Shown piece by piece: positions 56,152-62,272 of a stretch of DNA of 64,000 nt. The translations under genes and the position numbers were made by a program. The notes below the pieces were generated by a model, which was given only the letters and a program-made list of their open reading frames with translations, made no database searches and was not told the origin of the DNA. How positions within the stretch are numbered: position 1 is the stretch's first letter; the number at the start of each line of letters is the position of its first letter. This DNA comes from an uncultured Spirochaetota bacterium (GTDB lineage: Bacteria > Spirochaetota > Spirochaetia > SZUA-6 > Fen-1364): assembly GCA_963781885.1 (NCBI GenBank), contig CAWAHW010000007.1:96001-160000 (forward strand), written 5' to 3'.

Positions 56152-58371
56152 ATGAGAAGGGTCTTCGCGGTGGTGGTCTGCGCGTGTGTCGTCGCCCTGT
56201 CGGGGTGCGGCACATTGGGAACAACCGGCAGCGAGCAGGCGTCGGTGAAAGCCGCGAGCGTCGCGGCGCAGTGGGAGTATTTCCCGGACTGGAAGACGCT
56301 CGGATTGAAGCTCGTCGGCACGCCCCCCCGCGACGTGAGCGGTCCCGTCGAGGTCGGCGTGACGACGGACAAGGACGTCTCGCTCGTCGGATACCTCACG
56401 GACCTGTCCACCGGCAAGGAGCTGCCGCAAGGGAGCTACCCGGTCCACGACGGCGCGACCTGGAGGCTTGCCGCGGAGTTCCCGAAGGCCGGACAGTACA
56501 GCTTCACCCTCTTCGGCAAGCTGAAAAGCACGGCAGGCGACACCTACGCCGCCCTTGCACGCGCGAGCTTCGTCGTCACGGGGGACCCTGCGTCCAACTG
56601 GGCGGTCTTCCCCGGATTCACGGCGCACGGGCTCTCCGTCGTCACGGTGCCCCCGCTCGCCGTCAACGACGAGGCGCAGATCGCGCTGTCCACGGGGGAG
56701 GACCTCGAGTTCGGCTGGATCTTCTACGACAAGACGAACGACAGCTATCCCAGCGGGCAGGTCCGTGCGCAGGTGACCGGATCGCGTGTCTCCTTCACCG
56801 TCTCCTTCCCCGAGACGGCCGACTATTCGCTGCAGCTGGAATGCCGGCCGTCGGGCGCCGATGACAACGCCTGGGAATCGATCGCCATGGCGCGCTTCAA
56901 GGCCACGGTGAGCGCTGCGAACATCAAGGTGCCCGATAACTGGAATGTGACCCCCGGCCTGTTCAAAAGGCTCGGGGTCGCCGTCGTCTCCGCGCCCCCG
57001 CGCGCGGTCACGGACCAGGCGGACATCGTCCTGTCCTCCAAGGTGAAAATGTCCCTCGGCTACAACCTCACCAACCATACCACCGGCAAGGACACCCAGG
57101 TCATGAAGGACGTCGTGGAGATCGACCAGCAGGACCTGGAGCAGCACATCACCCTCTTCTTCCCGGATCCCGGCGAGTACGAGCTGTGGCTCTGGGCAAA
57201 GGCGGAAGGCGACAAGGATGATGCGGTGCTTGCACGCGTGAGCTTCACGGCTACGCCGAGCCCCGCGCCGAAGGTGCCCGACAACTGGGAGGTGGCGCCG
57301 CGCTTCAAGACATACGGCCTGTCCGTGCTCTCCTCATCGCCGCGGGAGACAGGGGAGGAGCTCTCCGTCGTCATCGGCGTGCCCGAGGGCTGGGACGGCT
57401 ACGCCTCCCTCCGCAACAAGGAGGGCACGAGCTCTGTTGGCGCCATGGCGTCCGACATCGTCGGCAAGGAACAGCGGATCTCCGCGGTTTTTCCCAGGAG
57501 CGGTGAATACATCCTGTCCATAAGCGGCAAGCTGGGAACCGAGAAATACTCCCGCACTCTTGCGACGGCGACATTCGTCGTGAAGGTGGATGAAAGCCTG
57601 TCGCCCTACCGGCTGTGGCGCGTCAGCGGGAGCTGGCCGCGCGTGCCCGTGTCCAAGGTGCAGCTCGTGCAGGAGCCCTGGGAGCCGTTCGTCGACTACC
57701 CCAGCTTCGATGAATACCGCACGGGCGTCCTCACCGACGCCCTCACCGTCGCCGCGGCGCAGGGAAACGTCTCCTTCGCCAAGGGCACGACGCTCACATT
57801 CGGGCACGACTACGGCAGCGAGTTCGCGGTTGACGCGTTGTCGGGGAATCTCGCCAAGGATGTGACCATCAAGGCGAACGGCACCACGCTCCTCTTTTCC
57901 GCGGGCTCGCCCTTCGTTGTCGCGGAGAAGCAGGCGGTCGGCCAGCTCATCCGGGACACGAAGATCGTCCTGGAAGGAAACACGCTCCTGGCGCCCAAGG
58001 GCAGCCGCATCTCCTACTGGGAATCGGGGATCTCCGAGATCGTGCCGGCCGGCAAGCCGACGTTGACGGTCGGCGCCAAGGTATACGAGGTGAATGGCGG
58101 CGTGCAGCTCGATGCCGGCGCGAAGGAAGGCTCCCCCCTGACGGTGAAGATCAAGACGGCACGGGACTACACGTTGAAGATCGGCACGAACAACAGCTTC
58201 ATCCTGCCGGCGGGCTCGCTGCTCAGCTTCACGAAGCAGGCGGTGACCGATGTCGTGTTCGCCAAGGATGCGAAGGTGACGCTTGCGGGCGCGGCCGATA
58301 CCGTGACGGCGGGTCAGGGGATCAGGTTCGACGACAAGGGAGTGGCGACAAAATACACCGCCGAGGAATGA
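56152..58371 (+). CDS. Large lipoprotein with four Ig-like repeats and a beta-rich C-terminus
   Basis: Lipobox LSGC; four ~105-aa repeats 'W...P.(F/W)...GL.VV..PP...FP..G.Y.L.L..K...A...F'; AGGAG SD. Confidence 0.85.
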   Translation: MRRVFAVVVCACVVALSGCGTLGTTGSEQASVKAASVAAQWEYFPDWKTLGLKLVGTPPRDVSGPVEVGVTTDKDVSLVGYLTDLSTGKELPQGSYPVHDGATWRLAAEFPKAGQYSFTLFGKLKSTAGDTYAALARASFVVTGDPASNWAVFPGFTAHGLSVVTVPPLAVNDEAQIALSTGEDLEFGWIFYDKTNDSYPSGQVRAQVTGSRVSFTVSFPETADYSLQLECRPSGADDNAWESIAMARFKATVSAANIKVPDNWNVTPGLFKRLGVAVVSAPPRAVTDQADIVLSSKVKMSLGYNLTNHTTGKDTQVMKDVVEIDQQDLEQHITLFFPDPGEYELWLWAKAEGDKDDAVLARVSFTATPSPAPKVPDNWEVAPRFKTYGLSVLSSSPRETGEELSVVIGVPEGWDGYASLRNKEGTSSVGAMASDIVGKEQRISAVFPRSGEYILSISGKLGTEKYSRTLATATFVVKVDESLSPYRLWRVSGSWPRVPVSKVQLVQEPWEPFVDYPSFDEYRTGVLTDALTVAAAQGNVSFAKGTTLTFGHDYGSEFAVDALSGNLAKDVTIKANGTTLLFSAGSPFVVAEKQAVGQLIRDTKIVLEGNTLLAPKGSRISYWESGISEIVPAGKPTLTVGAKVYEVNGGVQLDAGAKEGSPLTVKIKTARDYTLKIGTNNSFILPAGSLLSFTKQAVTDVVFAKDAKVTLAGAADTVTAGQGIRFDDKGVATKYTAEE

Positions 58372-59135
58372 CGCGACCGGCGCGGCGGAGGGCGCTGCTC
58401 TCCGCCGTCGCCTTCCTGTGCGCCCTCTCCGCCGGCGCCGATGACGCCCGGCAGGGCTTCGGAGACCGCTACGCGGATGCCGTGCACTACGTGGAGTCAC
58501 GCGCCGACGTATGGTGCAGCCGTCTGGGCGGCATGGGCGCCGACGCGCGCGTGCTCGTGCCGGCCGTCTTTCCCGAGATCCTCAAGTACACGTCCTTCCG
58601 CGACGACATCGAGACGCTCGGCCTCGCCGTGCTCTACGTGTCGGGGGGGACGGCGCGGGGCAACTTCTCCATCGGCCGCTTCCAGATGAAGCCGTCGTTC
58701 GTGGAGGCCCTGGAGGCACAGGTCGCACGCCGTCCCGATCTTCCCGCGACGCTCCGCGCCATCACGGGCTTTCCGGCCGGCGCGACGGAGAAGGACAGGC
58801 GCACGATCCGCATCGAGCGCATTCGCAGCGAACAGTGGCAGCTCACGTACCTGGGCGCCTTCTATGCCGTGGTGGCTTCCCGCTTCGACCTGGGCGGTCT
58901 TTCCGTCGAGGATCAGGTCAGGTTCGTGGCCGCGGCCTACAACCGCGGGTTCTGGTATTCCGCGGAGGAGATCCGGCGCGCCGAGGGCTTTCGCATCTTC
59001 CCGCATGGCTCCCGGGGCAGCCCCGGGCCCTACCGGTACACCGACATCGCCGTGGACTTCTTCAAGAGCACCTGGGACGCGATATATGCCGCGCGGGCGG
59101 GCGTCTCCGGCGGCGCCGCGCGCGCACGGCCATAG
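58368..59135 (+). CDS. Exported protein, possible lysozyme-like fold
   Basis: Signal peptide; FPE, SIGRFQMKPSF, AAAYNRG. Confidence 0.65.
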   Translation: MTRPARRRALLSAVAFLCALSAGADDARQGFGDRYADAVHYVESRADVWCSRLGGMGADARVLVPAVFPEILKYTSFRDDIETLGLAVLYVSGGTARGNFSIGRFQMKPSFVEALEAQVARRPDLPATLRAITGFPAGATEKDRRTIRIERIRSEQWQLTYLGAFYAVVASRFDLGGLSVEDQVRFVAAAYNRGFWYSAEEIRRAEGFRIFPHGSRGSPGPYRYTDIAVDFFKSTWDAIYAARAGVSGGAARARP

Positions 59136-59259
59136 CACCCGCGCGCACGCCTCAGCAGTTCTGATATGATGTGCCCCCGTCAAGCTCTAAAAGCCTCCTT
59201 TTTTCTTTAGAACTCCTTCTGAACATCGAGGCCAACCCGAAGAGATGGAGAAGGGCATA

Positions 59260-59445
59260 ACCGACGATCGACCAGTCTGATATGCGTGGATTGGTTACCG
59301 CAGGCCAATGTGATCGTCAGGAGCTTGCCTCCGTCTCATTACCAGGATCAGACCATAGTCTGCCTGCAGAACCGCTCGAGGATTCTCCGTTCGCCACGAA
59401 CCTTCCCCATCCGTCCCGGTTGCCTCGATTGCATACGCAGCCTCC
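59260..59445 (-). ncRNA. Candidate bridge RNA / seekRNA
   Basis: Two stem-internal loop-hairpin modules carrying target guides (59334-59340, 59368-59375) and donor guides (59276-59284, ~59302-59313); boundaries approximate. Confidence 0.75.
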
Positions 59446-60540
59446 TCAAGCCACCCGATCAACCATCGCGCCCCACAGGAACCCCGAGAGCTCTCGCGCC
59501 ACCGCCGTCACCACGGTCTGAGAAGCTTTGCCGCGAAAAAGCAGACGCAGAAATTTCTTGTTTAGCCGCCTGCACGCACGGTTGGCATAGCTGACCAAGG
59601 ATGGAGAAAGACCCTCGCGTCGTTTCATCAACCGAGTGCTACTGGGATGGTAGCTGCGGTATTGCCAGGCGGCCTCCACCAGAAGTTTGCGCAGGTGGGA
59701 ATTACCCGCCTTTGTGATTCCTCCCAAGCGCCTCTTGTTTCCGCTGGATCGCTCGGAGGGCACCAACCCCAAAAACGCCATGAATTGATCCGCACCTGCA
59801 AAGCGCCGAAAGTCCCCGATCTCCGAAACAAGCGACAAGGCGATCAGCGTCTCCACGCCCTTGAACGCCTTCAGCTTGGCTACAGGTTCGGCATAGCTTT
59901 TACCTGCCGCGATCTCTTCGATGCCCGCCTTGATCCGCCGACACTTCTCCTCCAGCTCGTCGACTTGGCAGCGGTACTCGGTGAGAGTCAACTGCTCCAG
60001 CGGATCCTCCAACTCAAGAGCCTGCAACCATGCTCGATGCGGCTGCGTCCATGTGGCTCCTTGTTCATAACGTATCCGCCTCCGCAGAAGAAAACCCAGC
60101 ACGCGCTGCTTGGCCTTGCGCAGATCGGACTTCATGTCCTCCAGCATTCGTAGATAGTCGCGAACCGCTTCGTCTTCCCGCGTGGGTACATGAACGGCAC
60201 TCACATCCCCGCTCCGAAGTGCGCGAGCAAGCATCACAGCGTCCCTTCTATCGGTCTTTATGCGATCTCCCGGACGATGTGGAATCTGAGACGGAGCCAG
60301 CACCGCACACGGCACACCCAGTTCCGTCAATTGTCGATACAGGGAATACCCTAGACATCCCGCCTCGTAGCATGTCACCAGGTCCCCCGCGGACTGGAGC
60401 TTCTTGAAATAGGCCTGGATTACGCTCTTTTCATTGCGAATCACCGTCTCGGCCCTCGGCTTCTGATCGCGCCCGCTCAGGATCGCTATGGCGATCTTTT
60501 CTTTGTCGACGTCCATGCCAACGTAATGTACAATACCCAT
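59446..60540 (-). CDS. IS110-family DEDD transposase/recombinase
   Basis: VGMDVDK, CYEAG, KTDRRDA; C-terminal GLVPSERSSG..G.ITKAGN. Confidence 0.96.
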   Translation of the reverse strand: MGIVHYVGMDVDKEKIAIAILSGRDQKPRAETVIRNEKSVIQAYFKKLQSAGDLVTCYEAGCLGYSLYRQLTELGVPCAVLAPSQIPHRPGDRIKTDRRDAVMLARALRSGDVSAVHVPTREDEAVRDYLRMLEDMKSDLRKAKQRVLGFLLRRRIRYEQGATWTQPHRAWLQALELEDPLEQLTLTEYRCQVDELEEKCRRIKAGIEEIAAGKSYAEPVAKLKAFKGVETLIALSLVSEIGDFRRFAGADQFMAFLGLVPSERSSGNKRRLGGITKAGNSHLRKLLVEAAWQYRSYHPSSTRLMKRREGLSPSLVSYANRACRRLNKKFLRLLFRGKASQTVVTAVARELSGFLWGAMVDRVA

Positions 60541-60646
60541 GACTGCCCCCTTGTGCGTTGTTTGTGGCGTGCCGCATCGAGACGCCAATCTCATGATACG
60601 GCCGATCCACGTTGTAGCAACCACCTGGGGGCACTTCATATTGTCT

Positions 60647-60758
60647 CATTTTGGACCATCCTGAGCTTTGGAAAAGGTATGCACACTTTGAAAACGGCCC
60701 TTTCATCATGGGACAAAATGAGAACTGCATCATTCAGTCACCATGCTGAGAATTGCTG
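60647..60758. repeat. Short AT-rich inverted-repeat (MITE-like) element interrupted by the IS
   Basis: The reconstructed empty site GCAGTTCTCATTTTG is the exact inverse of CAAAATGAGAACTGC (60714-60728); a third motif TGAGAATTGCTG lies at 60747-60758. Confidence 0.7.
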
Positions 60759-60776
60759 GGTCCCGCCTGACTCGGC

Positions 60777-60805
60777 TTGACCGTGGGCGCGAGGATTGGT
60801 AGCGT
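60777..60805 (+). promoter_or_regulatory. sigma70-type promoter, leaderless spacing
   Basis: TTGACC-N17-TAGCGT, then 6 nt to ATG 60812; no SD. Confidence 0.6.
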
Positions 60806-60811
60806 CCTTCC

Positions 60812-62272
60812 ATGCGTCGTCTGACCCTATTCAGCCTTGGCGTGCTCCTGCTCGCGAGCCTTGCGGCATGCTCCTACAACTACCGCATCGACATTCAGCC
60901 GCCGGATGCGCGCGTGAGCGCGAACGGCGCGGCCGTCGAAACCGGCAAAAACGTGTCGCTCCACGGCCGCTCGCTCGCCGTCACCGCGCTTCACGACGGG
61001 TATACCGACTTCAGCGGCTCCTATCGCCATCCCTTCTGGTTCGGGGAGAGGAAGATCTCCATCCAGATGGAGAGACGGAGCTACGCCGTCCAGGTTTCCG
61101 TGCTCGGTCCCCCGGTCCCCTATACGCTGGACGCGACGCTTTCGGGAACGACCCCGTTCTCCGGGAGTCTTGCCTACGGGGAGCACCACCTCGTGGTGAC
61201 GGAGCCCGATAAGACGCAGAAGACGATCGATTTCGCCGTGACCGGCCCCGGCCCCTACGTTTTCCGCCCCCAGAGCGCGCCGATCCCCCTCCAGCCCGTC
61301 GGTGTTTTCGACTGCGGCCTCCAGCCCAAGCAGATCCTCTTTTCCCCCGACGACAAGGAGCTTTTCATCCCGCTCCTGAACGGGAAGGGCTTCCAGATCC
61401 TGAACCTTTCCACGCGCACCATGCAGACGGTGGAGGTGGAGAAGTTCGGCAAGGACGTCGGCTTCGTGGAGGACATCATCATCCCCCGCGCGCCGAATGC
61501 GGCGGACAAGGACTATCGGCTGCTCGTGTCGCAGATGACCACCGCGCGGGTGCACGAGTACAAGCTGAAGCCTGACGGCAGCGTGGAATATGTCCGTTCC
61601 TTCAAGACGGGCGGGAATTGGTCCAAGGTCATCGCCTGGCTGCCGCAGCAGGACCTCCTGGCGGTGTCCAACTGGCTCAGCAACGACGTGACCCTCCTGG
61701 ACTACACGACCGCGAATGTCGTGCGAAAGCTCGGCGGTCTGGATGTGCCGCGCGGCATGGCCTTTACGCCGGACGGCAAGTCGCTGGCCGTGGCGTCCTT
61801 CAATGGCGGCTTCATCACCGAGTTCGACACGCAGACCTGGACGCGGACAAGGACGATCCAGCGTCCTGCCGGCGCCGCGCCGCGGCACATCGTCATCACC
61901 CAGGACGGCAAGTACTACTACGTGAGCGACATGGCGCGCGACGAGGTCCTGAAGATCGACCAGGCGACGTTCACCATCGTCCACGCCTACCCGACCCACT
62001 CGAATACCAACAGCATCGATCTGTCATCCGATGGACGGCTGCTCGCTATTTCCTGCCGCGGTCCGAACAATCCCGGCGGCTACGAGCTGAAAAGCCCCTC
62101 GGGAGGCTGGGTCATGATCTACGATACCCGCAACGACACCCTCCTGGCGACCATTGAAGGCGGGCTCCAGCCCACGGGGCTCGACATCAGCAACGATGAC
62201 AAGCTGCTTGCCTTCACCAATTTCCAGGACCCGACCGTGGAGATCTATTCGCTGGAAGGATTGCTGAAGTAG
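60812..62272 (+). CDS. Lipoprotein with PEGA-like domains and a YncE/YVTN beta-propeller
   Basis: Lipobox LAAC; 'P.DA.V..NG', 'GTTP'; propeller blades PRGMAFTPDG, PRHIVITQDG, PTGLDISND. Confidence 0.87.
   Translation: MRRLTLFSLGVLLLASLAACSYNYRIDIQPPDARVSANGAAVETGKNVSLHGRSLAVTALHDGYTDFSGSYRHPFWFGERKISIQMERRSYAVQVSVLGPPVPYTLDATLSGTTPFSGSLAYGEHHLVVTEPDKTQKTIDFAVTGPGPYVFRPQSAPIPLQPVGVFDCGLQPKQILFSPDDKELFIPLLNGKGFQILNLSTRTMQTVEVEKFGKDVGFVEDIIIPRAPNAADKDYRLLVSQMTTARVHEYKLKPDGSVEYVRSFKTGGNWSKVIAWLPQQDLLAVSNWLSNDVTLLDYTTANVVRKLGGLDVPRGMAFTPDGKSLAVASFNGGFITEFDTQTWTRTRTIQRPAGAAPRHIVITQDGKYYYVSDMARDEVLKIDQATFTIVHAYPTHSNTNSIDLSSDGRLLAISCRGPNNPGGYELKSPSGGWVMIYDTRNDTLLATIEGGLQPTGLDISNDDKLLAFTNFQDPTVEIYSLEGLLK

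Follow-up and report, generated by a model that had tools for sequence, protein, structure and literature searches.

How does an insertion sequence (IS) that has inserted again and again into one sequence find its site? The question is raised by a locus in the window analysed here, a stretch of 64,000 nt from the genome of an uncultured Spirochaetota bacterium (assembly GCA_963781885.1, contig CAWAHW010000007.1, positions 96,001 to 160,000). Near one end of this window lies an IS110-family element for which an earlier note, made from the letters alone, had proposed an RNA-guided mode of insertion. We compared the element with its other copies in the source genome (G000) and with homologues from elsewhere, and we read it, at a probability of roughly 0.9, as an autonomous, recently expanded IS1111-group element with a two-module RNA that guides its recombinase to the terminal arm of a short repeat. 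The element's anatomy, copy number and site specificity, the conserved fold of the RNA, the covariation of guides with targets and the strand of the RNA are shown by the data below. Coordinates follow window numbering (59,xxx–60,xxx), and copies elsewhere in the source genome are given as contig:position (C1–C6 etc.).

The source genome (seven contigs, 4.64 Mb) holds nine copies of the element. Seven are full copies of 1484 bp each with 99.87–100% mutual identity, one is interrupted by masked bases (C4:160001), and one (C2:775982-776873) has lost about 0.6 kb internally, including bases of the left end and the gene's 5' half. Wherever a junction is visible it reads CAGCAGT-TCT on the one side or TCT-CATTTTGGACC on the other, in a single orientation; the plus strand of the window (59153–60660) reads CAGCAGT-TCT-GATATGATGTGCCCCC ... 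GGGGGCACTTCATATTG-TCT-CATTTTGGACC, with TCT at both junctions (59160–62 and 60644–46). The target predicted by the earlier note, GCAGT/TCT/CATT, is therefore the site at which all nine junction-bearing copies sit, in the same arm of the same repeat and none elsewhere, and the empty site that it had predicted is real, being present exactly in two unoccupied repeats of the same genome. Occupied and empty sites differ solely by the element and one copy of the core, so that insertion is site-specific and without duplication beyond that short core. The repeat itself resembles a miniature inverted-repeat transposable element (MITE); its outer terminal repeats read GCA(G/A)TTCTCA(T/G)TTTGG, a third, inner copy of the terminal repeat lies 13 nt inside its right end, and its copies fall into at least two sequence subtypes. 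In the window the IS splits the outer arm, the other part of which is 59153–59162, and the inner arm, with the same 15-mer in inverse orientation, lies at 60710–60728.

The core had been described as apparently 3 nt long, and this did not hold. Three homologues (L014, L015 and L016) read AGA at the left junction and AGT at the right; since AG is followed by an A of the element on the left and by a T of the flank on the right, the shared core is 2 nt. On these sequences the family core is AG in the transposase sense and CT on the plus strand of the window, where the third shared base is a coincidence, as an A follows the core in both target and element. Given this 2-nt core, the element can also be written as 59161–60644.

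The site is matched by the two sides of an internal loop in an RNA region behind the transposase gene (Table 1). Each side is complementary to a different strand of the target (CCAAAATG-AG-AACTGCTG in the transposase sense), and the two overlap at the core, as in bridge RNAs and seekRNAs. Both stretches had been noted before as matches to the target flanks (TCTCATT at 59334–59340 and AGAACCGC at 59368–59375); they are present and they do match, the wobble-compatible mismatch in the 5' guide being a G·T. In IS1111 seekRNAs the match to the top strand lies 5' of the match to the bottom strand and the two overlap in the target, the reverse of the IS110-type order (PMC11187229); the order here is the one reported for IS1111 seekRNAs. 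A set of 83 homologous loci (L011–L093; 11 from a genome collection and 72 from metagenomes; 24–91% amino-acid identity) yielded right flanks for 39 loci and left flanks for 34. The 5' guide matches the right flank of its own locus at 8 of 8 positions in 17 loci, at seven in 13, at six in four, at five in four and at four in one. Over 32 unique pairs the mean match was 6.91, compared with 4.87 after permutation of the pairs, and none of 20,000 permutations reached the observed value; with one pair per distinct right flank (18) the means were 6.67 and 4.53 (0/20,000). For the 3' guide the corresponding means were 5.40 of 8 and 4.44 over 25 unique pairs, and 5.32 and 4.30 over 19 distinct left flanks, with 0/20,000 in both tests. 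Natural covariation over 18 right and 19 left flanks thus has the guides differing in step with the targets: across homologues the stems are fixed and the guide stretches vary with the flanks, which strongly supports the target module. Examples are L012 (5' guide GGAAUUCU, 3' guide AUUAGA, target GCATT-AG-AATTCC), L023 (5' guide CAAAAUCU, 3' guide not available, target AG-ATTTTG), L062 (5' guide UAUCAACCU, 3' guide CUGAUAGA, target CTGAT-AG-GTTGATA) and the L014 group (5' guide ACUGAACU, 3' guide UAGAGA, target CATAG-AG-TTCAGT). Dinucleotide shuffles of 59200–59445 served to gauge chance. A single guide arose in 324 (5') or 583 (3') of 20,000 shuffles, and both guides in the right order, 20–70 nt apart, in none; single matches are therefore weak, but their combination is not.

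The region that carries these guides has a conserved fold. The minimum-free-energy (MFE) fold of the minus strand over the full non-coding region consists of an outer stem and two tandem stem-loops with internal loops, and the RNAalifold consensus of alignment A2, which contains 41 distinct, complete RNA regions (40 loci and the window), gives 43 pairs in seven helices. Five loci were left out of A2 as exact duplicates of the RNA region (L016, L024, L028, L033 and L053), L020 because it runs into a contig end and L075 because its RNA region is deleted; the remaining loci either are distant relatives or have a stored contig that does not include the RNA region. The two-module fold proposed in the earlier note is borne out by both the MFE fold and this consensus, and its closing motifs GACGATC (59263–59269) and GATCGTC (59312–59318) and hairpin (59343–59366) are present. 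Pairing was found in 96.4% of 1761 cells, compared with 90.7% in column shuffles (0/500 reached the observed value) and 37–49% in controls in which the partner was slid by one to three columns. Covariation across homologues, the check named with the proposal, gave compensatory double changes at 15 of the 43 pairs: seven of 12 in the outer stem, seven of eight in the target-module hairpin (helix 4) and one closing pair (33/109), which is C-G in 28 sequences and G-C in 13. Compensatory changes thus support the conserved structure in the outer stem and in the target module. The 186 G·U cells and the lower pairing of the complement (86.8%, as opposed to 96.4% on the transposase-sense strand from which the consensus structure was derived) place the RNA on the transposase strand. 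All 41 sequences have the same trailing AGA in the 3' target guide.

The open reading frame (ORF) in front of this RNA encodes a recombinase of the matching kind. Its minus-strand frame (59446–60639) spans 397 aa, and the likely start is the ATG at 60540 behind AAGGGGG, a ribosome-binding-like site, which gives 364 aa. The protein has a DEDD (RuvC-like) N-terminal domain and a PF02371 C-terminal domain, with matches to PF01548 (E = 3.8e-13), PF02371 (E = 4.8e-22) and NCBIfam NF033542, 'IS110 family RNA-guided transposase' (237 bits; cut-off 140). Its residues D10, E59, D97, D100 and S266-G267 align with D11, E60, D102, D105 and S241-G242 of IS621 (the PDB chain is offset by 2), for which composite active-site roles are described in the available part of PMC11208158; this alignment is made up of two short stretches (E = 1e-7), the protein similarity being low. 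Residues 258–267, GLVPSERSSG, form the GL-P----S(t)G motif given for IS1111 transposases (PMC11187229), and seven of the ten, including G258, L259, P261, S266 and G267, are invariant in five aligned homologues. The length of 364 aa, counted from the first plausible ATG, lies outside the 330–350 aa that are typical, though not defining, for IS1111 transposases (PMC11187229). The earlier description of a complete, probably active recombinase is consistent with the intact ORF, the five catalytic residues kept and the near identity of the seven full copies; that the element is moving today we infer from these sequences.

The ends of the element agree with this assignment. Subterminal inverted repeats of 8 bp are set in from the ends by terminal extensions of 8 and 10 nt, an arrangement also seen in the homologues, and the non-coding DNA is longer downstream of the gene (283 nt) than upstream (106 nt). 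IS1111 elements have subterminal repeats of 7–17 bp according to the accessible text of PMC11208160, and such repeats together with a long downstream non-coding region separate the IS1111 from the IS110 group (PMC11187229; PMC11208160, as far as its accessible text goes). The element is an IS1111-type member of the IS110 family, as the earlier note had named it, by its domains, catalytic residues, GL-P----SG motif, subterminal repeats and downstream non-coding region.

Table 1. Features of the IS1111-type element and its surroundings, in window coordinates (strand '.' where neither is assigned).
Feature	Coordinates	Strand	Basis or remark
Whole insertion sequence, 1484 bp	59163..60646	-	Junctions shared by nine copies, and empty sites, in the source genome
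Subterminal inverted repeat, right end, GTGCCCCC (plus strand)	59171..59178	.	8 nt inside the core
TTGACG, -35-like hexamer beside the right-end repeat	59178..59183	-	Sequence reading; putative junction promoter
Structured RNA region (bridge/seek RNA): outer stem P1 around target and donor modules	59233..59417	-	Alignment of 41 homologues (A2)
Donor-binding module, closed by GACGA(UC)/(GA)UCGUC	59263..59318	-	Fold; donor role by analogy
3' donor guide, RNA CAUAUCAGAC	59275..59284	-	10/10 across the end-to-end junction
Candidate 5' donor guide, RNA UCACAUUG, facing left-end TCATATTG	59306..59313	-	7/8 with a C·A mismatch; weak
Target-binding module: closing stems GGAG/CUCC and CCUC/GAGG, internal loop, hairpin 59343–59366	59320..59388	-	Fold and covariation
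3' target guide, RNA AAUGAGA	59334..59340	-	Same sense as left flank AATG + core AG + A; pairs with the opposite strand
5' target guide, RNA GCGGUUCU	59368..59375	-	Pairs with the transposase-sense strand: core AG + right flank AACTGC
Recombinase/transposase gene, 364 aa	59446..60540	-	Pfam, NCBIfam, IS621 alignment
Promoter-like left-end site TTGCTA-16-TATCAT, 5' of the gene	60593..60620	-	Consensus match only
Subterminal inverted repeat, left end, GGGGGCAC (plus strand)	60627..60634	.	10 nt inside the core
Remainder of the target, MITE-like inverted-repeat element of about 120 bp	60647..60758	+	13 copies in the genome

Several observations weigh against this reading, and they concern the target guides, the RNA itself, the donor module and, as set out further below, the choice between the two arms of the repeat. 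The 5' target guide makes one G·T wobble with the sole target observed for it, and nine of the 39 loci (L011, L017, L029, L031, L032, L040, L047, L049 and L056) match their right flanks at only four to six of eight positions; several of the poorly fitting loci among L011/L024, L017, L029, L049 and L056 have broken genes or truncated elements. The folding energy of the single sequence is unexceptional (z = -1.84 for the 286-nt region), and for the 161-nt core it does not separate the strands (z = -0.04 on the minus and -2.27 on the plus strand), so that single-sequence folding was set aside as a test of strand or function, since it does not discriminate. An Rfam search of 58900–60900 with E up to 10 found no relevant family; its four matches were unrelated and at chance level (E 0.44–6). 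The eight sequencing runs that contain the stretch are all DNA metagenomes, none of them RNA, so that transcription, RNA ends and protein binding are conjectural here; by analogy, the RNA is presumably made and bound by the recombinase.

The remaining points concern module 2. Its donor-binding role draws on one 10-nt match and on analogy, and its helices 5–7, which are 97.6–98.5% paired with no double changes, gain no support from covariation; they are compatible with the structure, which their uninformative columns neither support nor contradict. The candidate 5' donor guide matches more poorly in the homologues than its 7/8 in the window. The homologues hardly differ at the left end (ACAATATGAA; first ten bases) or in CATATC at the right end, and the two left-end variants (L031 and L045) show no matching change in the RNA; because the donor ends are so nearly constant, covariation is uninformative on the donor guides. 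For the donor-module stem, the register first proposed gives U-A in 23, C-G in nine and no pair in nine of the 41 sequences, and an alternative register gives U-A in 31, U-G in nine and no pair in one.

The earlier note had proposed two donor guides, TCTGATATG (59276–59284) and CAATGTGA (59306–59313), both of which are present in the sequence. The first stands, and its match extends to 10/10 across the joined ends: it runs from the last six bases of the right end (CATATC) through the core AG into two bases at the start of the left end. Exact matches of at least 10 nt to the joined ends occurred in 22 of 3,000 shuffles, and its core, ATATCAG, is nearly invariant in the homologues. The second shows its 7/8 match, which is not significant alone, and it is weak as a guide: it overlaps AUUGG, which is paired with the 3' strand in the consensus fold, and its mismatch is, in the RNA sense, a C·A with no wobble. 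Only the 3' donor guide is therefore solid, and module 2 is likely to bind the donor by analogy with IS621 and with the IS1111 elements examined by Durrant et al. (PMC11208160); the proposal of a bispecific RNA 3' of the gene holds to this extent.

A seekRNA that guides to the target only would also account for much of this. Module 1 would then guide, module 2 would be a scaffold or a protein-binding part, and the ends would be read by the protein through the subterminal repeats, which all homologues keep. The RNAs that co-purified with IS1111 transposases are 82–96 nt long and only target matches are described for them (PMC11187229); module 1 alone is about 70 nt, the helices and loops of module 2 are almost invariant without double changes, and the 5' donor guide is weak and falls in a consensus stem. 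Against this stand the 10/10 match of the 3' strand of module 2 to the joined ends, at the shuffle frequency given above, the near-invariance of ATATCAG and likewise of the right end, and an architecture of module 2 that mirrors module 1. In addition, donor-complementary loops were reported in the IS1111 elements inspected by Durrant et al. (PMC11208160, in the available part of the text). We consider a target-only RNA unlikely and retain the two-module reading.

It might further be supposed that the copies spread by being carried along with the MITE-like repeat, which its own transposase would move in trans, in place of RNA-guided insertion by the IS. Every IS copy does lie in one repeat family and in one arm, and the genome contains a full-length IS with similar terminal repeats in three identical 1647-bp copies. 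However, the near-identical full IS copies are adjoined by 110 bp of repeat DNA that is only 72–94% identical and belongs to different subtypes, so that the IS entered repeat copies that had already diverged, in separate and recent insertions. Moreover, homologues in other organisms occupy unrelated sites that match their own guides. Transport by the repeat is thus very improbable, and the element is, judged from these sequences, recently expanded in the source genome. At 99% identity or more it was found in this genome only among 21 genomes searched, with distant matches (69–85%) in two congeners. In a congener of about 85% nucleotide identity the orthologous locus (L100) has neither the repeat nor the IS, and the flanking genes, a 255-aa ORF upstream (58368–59135) and a 486-aa ORF downstream (60812–62272), lie 31 nt apart; the repeat and the IS are therefore lineage-specific insertions in an intergenic spacer. 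The N-terminus of the 486-aa product resembles a lipoprotein signal (LLLASLAAC).

That the matches are incidental, the 3' region being an untranslated tail or terminator and the protein alone picking the site, is hardly credible: no single guide is rare by chance, the folding energy is ordinary and the runs include no RNA, but the guides change with the flanks over 18–19 distinct targets while the stems stay constant, the stems carry compensatory changes, and the paired guides never arose in the 20,000 shuffles.

The choice between the arms of the repeat is the last point that counts against a purely RNA-guided account. The identical 15-mer GCAGTTCTCATTTTG is present, in inverse orientation, in the inner arm of all 13 repeats, none of which is occupied there, whereas the outer arm is occupied in nine of 13. 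Because the 15-mer is the same in both arms, guide pairing alone does not predict the exclusive use of the outer arm, and nine of nine insertions there would have a probability of 0.5^9, about 0.002, if the odds were equal. The arms differ only beyond the guide-complementary stretch of about 13 nt. It is possible, and no better than a tentative suggestion, that target choice needs more than this stretch, through a determinant outside the current bridge-RNA model; equally tentative candidates are contacts with flanking DNA, the terminal context of the repeat, or a handshake-like base. A bias of the replication strand was considered and rejected: the absolute GC skew is at most 0.02 around the 11 repeat copies found by the pattern used and is unrelated to occupancy, and two repeats 2 kb apart in opposite orientation differ in state. 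A ninth pair, between the A before the 5' guide and the T after AACTGC, was considered as the discriminator between the arms, but it is unlikely to characterise the family, since by eye it is inconsistently paired in the homologues.

As for a handshake-like base, the 3' target guide invariably has an A after the core, and A is also the first base of the left end. Separately, the right flank's first base recurs directly after CAG in the 3' donor guide of the window (A), the L014 group (T), L019, L062 (G) and L059 (A), and does not do so in L011, L012, L013, L023, L026, L055, L061, L052 and L068. The agreement may reflect a handshake-like position in mirrored places, or chance.

From these parts a working scheme can be proposed, in which the circular intermediate, the junction promoter and the chemistry are modelled on published IS621, ISEc11 and related systems. 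Excision would yield a circle joined through one CT. At the circle junction, GACAAT, a sequence across the core and left end, would stand 16 nt downstream of the hexamer TTGACG, and the two would form a promoter for the gene and the RNA behind it; TTGAC stands at this place in all 39 distinct homologous right ends, and circular IS621 reconstitutes a junction promoter according to the available part of PMC11208158. A search for promoter-like consensus sites gave two where 0.8 were expected, and the site in the left end is weaker than the putative junction promoter. The RNA, about 185 nt long and lying within the right end, folds into the two modules, as the comparison shows. As the covariation shows, the 5' side of the target loop, GCGGUUCU, pairs with the transposase-sense strand over the CT/AG core and the right flank, and the 3' side, AAUGAGA, with the other strand over the left flank and the core; the site so defined, in which the two contacts overlap at the core, comprises about 13 nt of the MITE-like repeat's terminal arm. 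The donor loop would hold the joined right end, core and left end through its 10-nt stretch, and the RNA-guided DEDD/Ser recombinase would exchange strands at the 2-nt core, the circle inserting with duplication of the core only.

Some further observations on individual copies and loci may be recorded. The deleted copy (L009) has the first four left-end bases and then jumps into the gene (at about 60044 in the window); its 3' gene half survives along with the RNA region and the right end, and it is probably immobile. One unoccupied repeat (C2:799562) carries GCAGTTCTCATTTTG with one mismatch, and the two with the exact 15-mer are C1:386454 and C2:564163. A further repeat copy (C6:136150-136340; L098), with an unoccupied outer arm, lacks one base exactly at the crossover, reading AAAATGAGA-CTGCTGG in place of AAAATGAGAACTGCTG; either an excision footprint or an ordinary mutation may account for this. 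A related but distinct inverted-repeat unit at C3:41794-41911, with arms GCGCTTCTCATTTTG (two mismatches to the target), is unoccupied. The 1647-bp IS lies at C1:278054-279700 (L094), C4:220869-222515 and C6:77553-79199, and one of its copies directly adjoins an IS1111-type copy. It encodes a 437-aa DDE transposase with weak Pfam matches to DDE_Tnp_1 and DDE_Tnp_1_assoc, both under the cut-offs, and since it has terminal repeats (GCAATTCGCATTATGG) similar to those of the MITE-like repeat, it may be the autonomous relative of that repeat. Among the homologues, L011 and L024 are two contigs with one and the same element: its 3' guide agrees with the left flank (ATTAGA), but the right flank, AGAAGCTT, misfits the 5' guide, from which AGAATTGC is expected, which may reflect a later rearrangement or an off-target insertion. 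The left flank of L028 ends in CATATCAG; its reading as a tandem or circle junction was rejected as a coincidence because the upstream DNA is no second copy. Contigs of runs X1–X4 over 58700–61100, which break at the repeat boundaries, show no joint, empty site or circle junction in the parts covered.

Another IS1111-type element reportedly inserts into the terminal inverted repeat of another mobile element, with a host and a target sequence that differ from those described here, where the host element is a non-autonomous repeat of about 120 bp. Of the experimentally studied elements, ISEc11, ISPa11, ISKpn4 and ISPst6 (Siddiquee et al., 2024; PMC11187229) share with this one the downstream non-coding region, the subterminal repeats with terminal extensions, the GL-P----SG motif, the order and overlap of the guides and site-specific insertion into a repeated sequence. 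They differ in transposase length (330–350 aa, 364 aa here), a comparison by description and not by sequence. The present element is known from sequence alone, in an uncultured sediment bacterium, and targets the terminal arm of a MITE-like repeat. With IS621 (Durrant et al., 2024, PMC11208160; Hiraizumi et al., 2024, PMC11208158; as far as their available text goes) the element shares the DEDD + Ser recombinase with its five aligned catalytic residues, a 2-nt CT core that lies within both target contacts, and two internal-loop modules for target and donor. Nevertheless, the RNA lies 3' of the gene here and in the left end in IS621, the two guides follow each other in the opposite order within the loop, in agreement with what can be deduced from the account of IS621 by Durrant et al., long subterminal repeats are present here, the proteins have low similarity, and the CT core is on the strand opposite the gene. 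ISPpu9 of Pseudomonas putida is likewise a multi-copy IS110-family element in repetitive extragenic sites with a small RNA gene downstream of the transposase; it has solo copies of the RNA gene and modular circles (PMC12288879, in its available part), whereas in the present source genome blastn detected the RNA region nowhere on its own. Of the IS1111 elements catalogued in ISfinder, 93.0% have a predicted bridge RNA (PMC11208160, available part), and IS1111 seekRNAs were shown experimentally for four elements (PMC11187229). Since IS1111 bridge and seek RNAs were thus described in 2024, the present element is a clean further example of a known RNA-guided type.

The finding leaves the known working of IS110/IS1111 elements unchanged. 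RNA-guided recombinases of these groups are under development as programmable DNA-insertion tools. To our knowledge, worked examples are fewer for the IS1111 branch than for IS621, and we know of no solved structure for that branch. The element and its roughly 40 relatives form a natural matched series of guides and targets (18–19 distinct targets) on a constant scaffold, which reveals the loop positions that are read and the CT core and offers a compact candidate orthologue. For the source genome, it accounts for nine assembly-breaking, near-identical repeats and points to a recent transposition burst with a MITE family as its target.

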